Shown: positions 3,302 through 4,772, numbered from the stretch's first letter. The stretch: 64,000 nucleotides of DNA from an uncultured Aliiroseovarius sp. (GCF_947497285.1 NZ_CANMFT010000004.1:305595-369594); one strand, 5' to 3'. Numbers and translations: made by a program. Notes: a model not told the origin generated them from the sequence alone.

Positions 3302-4330
3302 CTAACGTCCTTTGCGCTTTCCTGCGCCCTTGGTAACGCTCTTCACCATTTTCGAGAACTTTCGCTGTCGCGCGCGGCTTTCGGCCACCGTCTCGGTGTT
3401 CTTTGCATCACCGGCGCGCAATTTGCGCCAGCGTGCCAAACGGTCCAGATCAAGCTCTCCCGCGTCGATGGCCGCGCGTACGGCACACCCTGGCTCGGTT
3501 TCATGCGCACAGTCGGAAAACCGACATTGGGTTTCCAGCTCGGCCAGATCGTCAAAAACGCTGTCGATCCCCTCGCGGGTGTCCAAAAGACGTAACGCAC
3601 GCATGCCGGGCATATCAATGATCCAACCGCCCTGCAGCATGGGACGCATACTGCGCGAGGTTGTGATATGGCGGCCCTTCGCGTCGTCTTCGCGGACGCC
3701 GCCGGTGTCGGCGTCGCCCCCAGTCAAGCCATTGGTTAGGGTTGTTTTGCCCACGCCGGACGACCCGATAAAGGCCGCCGTTTGCGGGGCTTTGCACCAC
3801 GCCGCCACCGCTGCCGCACCGGATGGGTCGCGGGCGTTGACGGTCAGGATCGTCAGCATCGGGTCAAGGGTCTGTGCCTCGGCCTCGTATCGAAGGGGAT
3901 CATCGCACAGGTCCGCTTTTGTCAGGACCAGAACAGGATAACATCCAGCCTCATGTGCCAGTGCCAAAAACCGTTCGATCCGGGCAATGTTGAAATCATC
4001 ATTGCACGAGGTCACGATAAACAGCGTATCGACATTCGCCGCGATCAGCTGCGTATGTGCATCGGTCCCGGCGGCACGTCGTTGAAGCAGTGATTTTCGC
4101 TCCAAACATCGTTGTATGCGAAGCTCTGGGTCGGCCAAAACCCAATCGCCAACCGCCAATTCGCCGGCCACGATCTTGGGAGAGGTCAGGGTGACCTCGC
4201 CCGCCTCGCCCAGCGCATTCATGCGGCTGCGGTGAATGTCGGTGATCCGGTAAGGGGTCAAGTCGGCAGCGTCGTCGCGCTGCGCTTCGAAGAAAGGGGA
4301 CCAACCAAGGTCCGTAAGTGTGTGTGTCAT
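3302..4330 (-). CDS. rsgA: RsgA/EngC-family ribosome small subunit-dependent GTPase ('LGW' N-terminus type)
   Basis: Circularly permuted G motifs (TKAD, GSSGVGKTT, DMPG), GRHITT and zinc finger CRFSDCAHETEPGC. Start placed at ATG 4330 (MTHTLTDLGW). Confidence 0.93.
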   Translation of the reverse strand: MTHTLTDLGWSPFFEAQRDDAADLTPYRITDIHRSRMNALGEAGEVTLTSPKIVAGELAVGDWVLADPELRIQRCLERKSLLQRRAAGTDAHTQLIAANVDTLFIVTSCNDDFNIARIERFLALAHEAGCYPVLVLTKADLCDDPLRYEAEAQTLDPMLTILTVNARDPSGAAAVAAWCKAPQTAAFIGSSGVGKTTLTNGLTGGDADTGGVREDDAKGRHITTSRSMRPMLQGGWIIDMPGMRALRLLDTREGIDSVFDDLAELETQCRFSDCAHETEPGCAVRAAIDAGELDLDRLARWRKLRAGDAKNTETVAESRARQRKFSKMVKSVTKGAGKRKGR

Positions 4331-4331
4331 T

Positions 4332-4438
4332 GGTCTGCCTGTTTCAGCATGGCATTGCACCCCGCGCGCAAACGCGGCTTGGGGTGTGCGTGCTCAGGCA
4401 GAAATGGGTCAAACCCGTTTAGCAATTTCCTGCCCGAA
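4332..4438 (-). promoter_or_regulatory. Candidate translational attenuator with mutually exclusive hairpins controlling the rsgA SD
   Basis: Segment UCUGCCUGAG can pair with the SD-containing CAGGCAGA just upstream of the rsgA ATG. Alternatively it pairs with UUCGGGCAG(G)AAAU in the leader ORF. Confidence 0.65.
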
Positions 4439-4457
4439 GGGTGATGAGAACAGTCAT
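4419..4457 (-). CDS. Putative 12-aa leader peptide MTVLITLRAGNC upstream of rsgA
   Basis: SD GGAGGG (4463-4468), 5-nt spacer, ATG at 4457, TAA at 4419-4421. Its 3' half is complementary to the anti-SD arm of the rsgA leader. Confidence 0.7.
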   Translation of the reverse strand: MTVLITLRAGNC

Positions 4458-4508
4458 GAAGTCCCTCCGTTTGTTGGCGGCCCGTGGTGGTTTCGGGCTT
4501 TTGGGCGG

Positions 4509-4638
4509 CTGTCCCTCTCGGCAAAACTCCGTTTCGCCTGTCGGGGTTTCAAATTCTGCGAATTTGAAACTGTTCTGTCCCTCTCGACAAAACTCCGTTT
4601 TGCCTGTCGGGGTTTCAAATTCTGCGAATTTGAAACTG
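4509..4638. repeat. Tandem direct repeat, 2 x 64 bp (period 66 bp), each copy with two hairpins
   Basis: 4509-4572 and 4575-4638 are identical at 62/64 positions. Each contains the perfect inverted repeat GTTTCAAATTC-tgc-GAATTTGAAAC. Confidence 0.95.
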
Positions 4639-4641
4639 GGT

Positions 4642-4734
4642 GAGAGGCTGAACACGACCCAAGCGGGGCTCGTTGTGGCTGCTTCCTTCCGGACCTGACC
4701 AGATTGGCGAGGTGCCTGCCCGCGCCAACCTCTC
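4642..4734 (-). ncRNA. ffs: Signal recognition particle (4.5S) RNA
   Basis: Reverse strand contains the conserved domain IV GGTCAGGTCCGGAAGGAAGCAGCC. The termini GAGAGG/CCTCTC pair. Lies upstream of dnaX as is usual for ffs. Ends are approximate. Confidence 0.96.
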
Positions 4735-4772
4735 GCCTCTCATATATGAGGCACTCACAAGCGATGCAAGCC

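Follow-up and report, generated by a model that had tools for sequence, protein, structure and literature searches.

The gene for the small SRP RNA (4.5S RNA, ffs) of an uncultured Aliiroseovarius sp. is followed directly by a short tandem repeat, and the locus raises the question of whether this repeat belongs to the RNA, acts as a signal on the DNA, or is a mobile palindrome that came to lie behind ffs. To our knowledge, little is understood of how the SRP RNA 3' end is formed in bacteria other than E. coli and B. subtilis. The window, i.e. the whole stretch of DNA that was analyzed, comprises 64,000 nucleotides (contig C4:305595-369594) of a genome of 3.38 Mb with 59% G+C and a completeness of 99.97%; positions are counted from its first letter.

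On the minus strand, a 5'-nucleotidase-like gene (6797-4773) is followed by ffs, the repeat, a 12-codon leader ORF, rsgA, a DUF202 gene and dnaX. The ffs gene was identified at 4735-4638 by the full model of Rfam RF00169 (57.3 bits, E 3.3e-11, model positions 1-97). A likely ffs promoter, TTGCAT-N17-TATATG (4741-4769, minus strand), was read by eye and implies a start at about 4735; it lies below the threshold of the promoter scan. The TATAT box upstream of ffs is conserved in relatives, and an RNA contig of run X1 begins about 3 nt upstream of the ffs 5' end equivalent to 4735. The leader ORF (MTVLITLRAGNC; 4420-4458, minus strand) with its Shine-Dalgarno sequence GGAGGG lies outside the repeat as its downstream neighbour and is conserved in relatives; the next gene is rsgA (3302-4360, minus strand; Pfam RsgA_GTPase 1.6e-43). 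Upstream of rsgA (4328-4500, minus strand), the strong Shine-Dalgarno sequence and the leader ORF are followed by hairpins.

Tandem Repeats Finder (TRF) placed the repeat at 4509-4638 (period 66, 2.0 copies, 96% matches, zero indels), and the whole two-copy array spans 4509-4640 (2 x 66 bp). A tandem repeat with this period at the SRP RNA 3' end had been claimed by an earlier, sequence-only reading of the locus, and both TRF and a direct comparison of the copies bear it out. The same reading let the repeat start 3 nt after ffs; the adjacency stands, and the proximal copy begins 2 nt past the last base of the RF00169 model in the ffs sense. This copy occupies 4575-4640 and the distal copy 4509-4574, both on the minus strand, with scores of 87.1 and 82.3 bits in the covariance model R1.

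Each copy contains the AT-rich 11-bp palindrome and the second hairpin that had been described for it. In the ffs sense, the unit begins with the first hairpin (H1), GUUUCAAAUUC-GCA-GAAUUUGAAAC, an AU-rich 11-bp stem with a GCA triloop (4636-4612 in the proximal, 4570-4546 in the distal copy), which is followed by CCC-GACA, an 8-bp stem with a GGA loop, and GAGA-GGG. The latter parts form the second hairpin (H2; 4579-4611 and 4513-4545, minus strand), in which two helices are separated by a purine-rich 4x4 internal loop (GACA/GAGA). The H2 stem reads GGCAAAAC-GGA-GUUUUGUC at 4604-4586 and GGCGAAAC-GGA-GUUUUGCC at 4538-4520. For the sense strand, predicted folding energies are -23.7 kcal/mol for the proximal unit (z -5.2) and -26.1 kcal/mol for the distal one (z -5.4), with an MFE frequency of about 0.86; the fold of the antisense strand is both less stable and less unique (-19.8 and -20.2 kcal/mol; z -3.0 and -3.4). 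A search of the repeat against Rfam 15 at E values up to 1 yielded a plant miRNA model as the sole match (26 bits vs a cut-off of 83 bits), which is a chance match of a palindrome.

H1 is itself a near-perfect palindrome (4546-4636, minus strand), so the two H1 copies can also pair with each other. In the predicted MFE fold of the precursor (-98.6 kcal/mol), this pairing forms a duplex of about 25 bp around the first H2, which, as a prediction from folding, would be long enough for RNase III.

The copies differ at 2 of 64 nt (plus-strand positions 4521/4587 and 4535/4601), and both differences are transitions within H2. As had been claimed, they leave G:U pairs on the minus strand, exactly one in each H2 copy, which would read A:C on the plus strand. 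Taken alone, two stem-preserving changes are weak evidence for structure, with a chance of 0.19 for random substitutions, 0.45 for transitions only and 0.03 when both are required to hit stems. Strong evidence is provided by other species.

The module was found directly after ffs in all 24 good-quality Aliiroseovarius genomes, while the spacer between the module and the leader ORF is unalignable across the genus. Throughout the genus, the stem of H1 is AU-rich, 11 bp long and capped by a triloop, and begins 2-4 nt past the mature SRP 3' end, and H2 is a stem-loop of 7-10 bp with the conserved flanks CGRCAG ... YGAGAG(GG). In an alignment of 20 sequences, 96.0% of 420 cells were paired vs 85.7 +/- 0.9% in shuffles and 26-61% in slid controls, and compensatory double changes occurred in 10 of 21 pairs; RNAalifold recovered both hairpins without prior structure. 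Wobble pairs on the ffs-sense strand comprised 22 G:U vs 5 A:C cells (binomial p 0.0015, uncorrected for relatedness), and four of the five A:C cells are at the loop-closing pair of H1. Among close relatives, A-U, G:U and G-C were observed in series at single pairs, which is the signature of compensatory evolution in place. From the covariation, the strand-specific G:U bias and the better folding of the sense strand it is concluded that the hairpins are under selection on the transcribed ffs strand. The proposal of a structured RNA module selected in the ffs direction is thereby supported across species.

By contrast with the pairing, the H2 loop varies among species (GGA, GAA, AAA, GCA, UUG and others), and a CsrA-type GGA motif was rejected for this reason. 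The motif GAGAGG, which had been noticed as identical to the SRP 5' end, is indeed present in each copy. The identity merely results from the conserved flank CGAGAG on the 3' side of H2, which is found behind tRNAs and within IS inserts as well and is replaced in several species (GGACGGG, GAGCCGG, GUCACGG, CAUAGGG). An alternative precursor helix between the downstream GAGAGG and the CCUCUC of the ffs 3' end was likewise rejected, because the flank changes while the ffs end is invariant; furthermore, the second repeat copy has no partner for such a helix.

The number of units differs within the genus. The trailer of A. marinus carries three identical 39-nt H2 units and two degenerate ones, that of A. 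crassostreae four H2 units, and diverged H1+H2 doublets occur in two species; these cases show that the copy number varies by independent amplifications. The duplication in the present genome is not an assembler artefact, a worry that had been raised beforehand. In the DNA runs X19 and X22, an 89-nt Logan contig without any mismatch to 4543-4631 spans the copy junction (4574/4575) with 32 and 57 nt on either side, and no one-copy joint was seen in these two runs, which are marine sediment metagenomes and possibly the assembly's own source, hence no independent population. The closest relatives have one trailer copy, the nearest named relative at the ffs locus being A. conchicola. The 66-bp unit is bordered by CAG microhomology, with an AA filler at the joint. 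The single copy in the closest relatives, the two transitions and this joint together indicate that the second copy is a recent product of slippage or unequal exchange at the CAG microhomologies.

How ffs is transcribed can be approached through its neighbours. What lies behind ffs in 30 other genera is the rsgA leader (within about 15 nt), dnaX (within about 30 nt), or a comparable H1+H2 pair, in which the H1 sequence differs and the H2 flanks are kept (CCGACAGG...CCGAGAGG); many genera have no module behind ffs. Since the Shine-Dalgarno sequence of the rsgA leader or dnaX lies only 15-30 nt past ffs, co-transcription of ffs with downstream genes is the norm in the family. A longer transcript is thus the normal setting of the ffs RNA, with the module as an accessory where ffs meets the sequence downstream. 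The leader follows ffs after only about 15 nt in several other genera, and rsgA is therefore probably transcribed from the ffs promoter. A terminator scan detected no canonical terminator between ffs and rsgA (none in 4400-4740), while canonical terminators with GC-stem and U-tract are present elsewhere in the genome, behind several tRNAs and the 5S rRNA. As transcription of ffs in Rhodobacteraceae proceeds into rsgA or dnaX without a terminator in between, the SRP RNA has to be excised from a longer transcript.

No RNA-seq data of this strain were found, and the RNA runs contain ffs words from relatives only. A 159-nt contig of run X1 from a one-copy relative comprises ffs, H1 and H2 and ends at GAGAG at the base of H2; its ends are crude, and the library type was guessed as RNA. 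In the seawater metatranscriptome X2, ffs words reached a depth of 75-136, and a trailer contig, which reads on for 129 nt, a depth of 2.4 (about 2%). This pattern fits a low-abundance precursor from which the trailer is removed, and places the RNA ends only roughly. Co-transcription of the trailer with ffs is thus shown in a relative, given the guessed RNA origin of X1.

On balance, it is somewhat probable that a REP/BIME-like structured element was fixed as a co-transcribed 3' trailer of ffs, where it serves as a processing signal or exonuclease barrier, and was later duplicated by slippage. The trailer, a mosaic of H1 and H2, would be transcribed from the ffs promoter within a precursor without a canonical terminator before the rsgA leader, as the contigs show in part. 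The mosaic has become fixed behind ffs in Aliiroseovarius and behind both rRNA-spacer tRNAs in part of the genus, and its hairpins may mark the junction between a stable RNA and the sequence downstream. The trailer would fold on itself and leave the SRP helix undisturbed, the base of H2 would stop 3'-5' exonucleases, and the single-stranded linker of 2-4 nt before H1 would be accessible to an endonuclease, whose cut would be followed by trimming of the SRP 3' end. The second copy may simply be an added barrier. REP hairpins are known to stabilise upstream RNA against 3' exonucleases. As the internal-loop sequence is strongly conserved, a specific binding factor may be supposed, and the GACA/GAGA loop probably is its recognition site; by eye only, the loop resembles loop E of 5S rRNA or the symmetric loop of SRP RNA.

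Modules of the same type are located behind two other stable RNAs. In the rRNA spacer (C14:3655-4025), pairs follow tRNA-Ile and tRNA-Ala 1-5 nt past the CCA, at internal junctions of a polycistronic precursor as at ffs. Both first hairpins are AU-rich with a triloop (GCUUUUUGC-AAC-GCAAAAAGC after tRNA-Ile and AUCCAAUUCC-AAA-GGAAUUGGAU after tRNA-Ala), and each is followed by CGACAG-stem-loop-stem-CGAGAG. Spacer-tRNA modules are arranged likewise in two other genera. About half of the Aliiroseovarius species have no spacer modules, and there tRNA-Ile and tRNA-Ala are 5-7 nt apart; gains or losses of the spacer modules have therefore occurred during the history of the genus, while the copy behind ffs is present throughout. 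H1 was also considered as a putative RNase P minihelix (stem + NCCA): NCC follows H1 at ffs and ACCA/GCCA follows it after tRNA-Ala, but such a sequence is absent after tRNA-Ile and in other genera.

Beside the stable RNAs, a lone H2 was detected in the 3' UTR of a gene for a 286-aa protein (ending ...YVVEKAFLE; C6:172978-173009), 17 nt before a canonical terminator, and the orthologous 3' UTR of another species (G191) contains several H1 and H2 units, then a terminator. In another genus (G184), H1+H2 modules begin 0-1 nt past the stop codons of two protein genes (L026:1500-1650 and L033:1420-1580); they belong to a longer repeat common to both sites, which goes on with GGGGUUYCACCCC ... AGGUAUUUAMGGACAAAAGA. 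All copies outside IS elements, i.e. those at ffs, in the spacer (ITS), in the one 3' UTR and at the two G184 gene ends, lie in the transcription sense.

Several points count against the reading as a processing trailer. The module must be dispensable in principle, considering the many genera without it behind ffs and the half of the genus without it in the spacer. H1 would block exonuclease trimming unless the linker is cut, and 2-4 nt are short for RNase E. Finally, H2-type hairpins occur in both orientations in IS elements, where they could evidently spread without any role in RNA processing.

This last point leads to the question of where H2 comes from. Apart from the two ffs copies, no dispersed copies of the 66-bp unit were detected in this genome by blastn-short, motif and regular-expression scans or the covariance model R1, and in the BLASTN copy-number check that had been proposed only the two ffs copies reach significance. 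A loose descriptor gave 14 hits vs 8 in the reversed-genome control, of which about five are credible; about three diverged relatives exist besides the ffs copies. In the family, the pattern CYGRCAG-N14-24-YGAGAGGG was found in 243 of 401 sampled genomes with up to 37 occurrences per genome (0-3 in the reversed-pattern control). Other Rhodobacteraceae thus reach 20-37 copies, many of them within IS elements, and the ends CGRCAG and YGAGAG(GG) are common to all 54 instances collected. Outside the family, a hairpin CGACAG-CUCCCCUUUCAGGGGAGC-CGAGAG is repeated on several contigs of Candidatus Scatomorpha merdipullorum, a chicken gut MAG (L142, L146), where it is preceded by a conserved stretch ...CAACCCCUCAGUCACG...; it may be a chance match of the flank pattern or a separate repeat family.

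The behaviour of H2 within IS elements is best seen in one Aliiroseovarius sp. (G017:C6:4035-5535), in which a single IS3 copy bears nine H2-type inserts of 37-41 nt (351 nt in total). Five are in forward and four in reverse orientation, each lies 5' of a G, and no target duplication is present. A homologue on the Pseudosulfitobacter plasmid NZ_CP085160.1 (84% identical) served as the uninterrupted reference, and removal of the nine inserts in silico restored intact orfA and orfB. In Alisedimentitalea scapharcae (G249), all seven 1543-bp IS3 copies (99.9-100% identical; e.g. L193:722-2264) carry a hairpin of 41 nt, which shifts the reading frame and interrupts orfB immediately ahead of the DDE core; an IS3 copy free of the hairpin was not found in that genome, and hairpin-free relatives have 1503 bp. 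In an IS5-family element of another genus (G159; L027/L148), all diverged copies (77-86% identical) are frameshifted by an H2-type hairpin located between VFA and DGGYAGPKL. The end of this element, ...GGGCAATG, provides an in-frame ATG for the downstream part, and the same applies to the Alisedimentitalea IS3. Inserts acting as RNA-level introns in the transposase mRNA are unlikely, as both orientations occur within one IS.

In form, the H2 family is REP-like, H2 with its flanks being a short imperfect palindrome of about 33 nt (37-41 nt for the IS inserts), yet it fails the tests that define REP/REPIN and MITE elements. High-copy dispersal, a GTAG or CGTC tag, a RAYT and inverted doublets were all looked for in this genome and not found; the inserts are shorter than MITEs (70-300 bp) and have neither a duplicated target nor terminal inverted repeats of MITE type. 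No RAYT/Y1 HUH transposase (PF01797) is encoded in this genome, nor in four of five high-copy genomes. Of the original suggestion of a REP/MITE-like element, the REP-like part thus holds for H2 in the family as a whole, with its up to about 37 copies per genome and its IS inserts; dispersal in this genome, MITE features and the expected association with a RAYT/TnpA transposase do not. A literature search on SRP RNA processing in Rhodobacter or on palindromic repeats in Rhodobacteraceae gave nothing specific, and the H2 element family in Rhodobacteraceae is apparently undescribed.

It is possible, if rather doubtful, that palindromes of about 38 nt without a RAYT insert without target duplication, riddle IS elements, and have been domesticated together with H1 behind ffs and the tRNAs of the ITS. 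In that case, the GRCA/GAGA loop would be recognised by a dedicated host factor, either a nuclease or an enzyme acting on single-stranded DNA, and there might also be a way to neutralise or tolerate inserts in transposase genes.

These findings also bear on the first rival explanation, according to which a selfish or neutral REP-like DNA palindrome merely landed behind ffs and keeps its hairpin for propagation as single-stranded DNA. The wide occurrence of the family above its control, the nine independent IS3 inserts in both orientations without target duplication, the restriction of ITS copies to about half of the genus and the recurrent tandem amplification would all be expected of such an element. 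An active pool is missing from the genus, however, with a handful of copies per genome that, outside ffs, lie in IS elements or the ITS, and no candidate transposase was found. Moreover, a mere passenger should hardly be kept in 24 of 24 genomes with in-situ compensatory changes via G:U while the neighbouring spacer decayed, nor should all non-IS copies point in the transcription sense. We consider this explanation unlikely.

A second rival, a transcription terminator or attenuator that limits read-through from the strong ffs promoter into the rsgA leader, with more copies giving tighter insulation, appears more improbable still. The X1 contig ends at the base of H2, the depth of the trailer in X2 is far below that of ffs, and copy number differs between species. 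In an uncultured Litoreibacter MAG, a canonical terminator hairpin even occupies the position of H1 and is followed by H2 units. Neither hairpin of the module has a U-tract, however: H1 is AU-rich and continues with CCCGAC, and H2 continues with GAGAGGGAC. The scan was negative at this place although ordinary terminators exist elsewhere in the genome, the H2 units in 3' UTRs have a separate canonical terminator after them, stopping after each tRNA inside the rRNA operon would be harmful, and the X2 contig passes the trailer by 129 nt. The Litoreibacter locus (L132, about 3550-3720) has a further peculiarity: the ffs 3' end CCUCUCACC, the canonical terminator, which is bidirectional, and the inverted copy GGUGAGAGG form one long palindrome.

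It is most improbable that the repeat acts at the DNA level, whether by driving the rsgA leader from an outward promoter (TTGAAA-N17-GAGTTT) or by binding a dimeric protein as an operator palindrome. The motif is present in both copies as described, TTGAA in the 3' arm of H1 is conserved in most of the genus, and a few species have better -10-like hexamers (e.g. TAGTAT at 17 nt). The claim of an outward promoter failed nevertheless: the sigma-70 scan found no sites in the repeat, and the '-10' candidate agrees at 2 of 6 positions, lies in the loop and 3' arm of H2 and varies freely, only about 13 of 20 sequences having A as the second base. The asymmetry of G:U vs A:C favours a single-stranded reading of one strand, H1 pairing is kept despite sequence change in other genera and the ITS, and where a genus lacks the module, ffs and the leader are too close together to accommodate a promoter. 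Hardly any credence can be given to a trans-acting small or protein-sequestering RNA cut from the ffs precursor, e.g. one titrating a GACA/GAGA-binding protein: the internal loop is more conserved than a plain hairpin needs, the module is a discrete stable fold, and tandem copies would shift its dosage, but the trailer reaches only about 2% of the ffs depth in X2 and the repeat has no match in Rfam.

The processing-trailer reading offers a testable handle on how a cut or a protection is specified, as one module is common to ffs and the spacer tRNAs. The H2 family and its behaviour inside IS elements are the more novel lead than the local finding at ffs. The family connects stable-RNA flanks, 3' UTRs and IS interiors without a classical REP transposase, which makes it a candidate for a new mechanism of mobilisation or recognition. 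H2 should also be a useful annotation marker in genomes of the Roseobacter group, in which such IS copies are now called pseudogenes.

Among known systems, the trailers of stable RNAs are closest in position. In E. coli, hairpins abutting the CCA end of tRNAs are removed by RNase E cleavage and subsequent exonuclease trimming, and the SRP RNA of B. subtilis (scRNA) is cut from its precursor by RNase III. A hairpin 1-5 nt past the mature 3' end within a longer transcript is common to these cases and the present one. The trailers of E. coli and B. subtilis, however, form no conserved sequence families and are not common to unrelated loci, whereas here one type with a sequence-specific internal loop serves ffs and two tRNAs. 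The boxB-boxA region of rRNA spacers is similar in one place: after tRNA-Ala, a boxA-like CUUCCUCUUGACG (the leader boxA of this genome is GCUCUUUGACA) follows H1, ahead of the CGACAG-hairpin-CGAGAG unit. In contrast, no boxA lies between H1 and H2 at the ffs copies or the tRNA-Ile copy, and the classical box system has no counterpart of H2. The small dispersed repeats (SDR) of Nostoc, reportedly described by Elhai et al. in 2008 as 21-27 nt long and nested in other mobile elements, are likewise very small (<50 nt) mobile repeats within mobile elements and have hairpin-forming sequence; they belong to another phylum and differ in sequence, and we know of no link between SDR and stable-RNA flanks.

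The REP/BIME elements of enterobacteria and pseudomonads, including the REPINs mobilised by RAYT, share most features of form. REPs are short imperfect palindromes of 20-40 nt. They are located downstream of genes on the strand that is transcribed, in some cases past the stop codon but ahead of the terminator, and are combined into mosaics and tandem clusters; a role as RNA hairpins has been proposed for them, and related genomes differ in their copy number (PMC3733652, PMC3116915). Size, 3' position on the transcribed strand, mosaics, tandem clusters and copy variation are all found again in the module. REPs are defined by terminal GTAG or CGTC tags (PMC3733652, PMC3116915), whereas the ends here are CGRCAG and YGAGAG(GG). 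Furthermore, Y1/RAYT is absent here and in four of five high-copy genomes, REPINs are inverted doublets while the units here are single or in direct tandem, and this genome has about five copies, with a preference for stable-RNA 3' flanks and IS interiors. The CGTC-tagged REPs, or intragenic REPs or RPEs (Di Nocera et al. 2013, PMC3733652), come nearest in lacking an obvious transposase, in having members within coding sequences and in a plausible RNA function. H2 differs from them in its terminal motif and in the concentration of its intragenic copies in IS3 and IS5 transposase genes, where the inserts are mostly frameshifting and number up to nine per IS copy.
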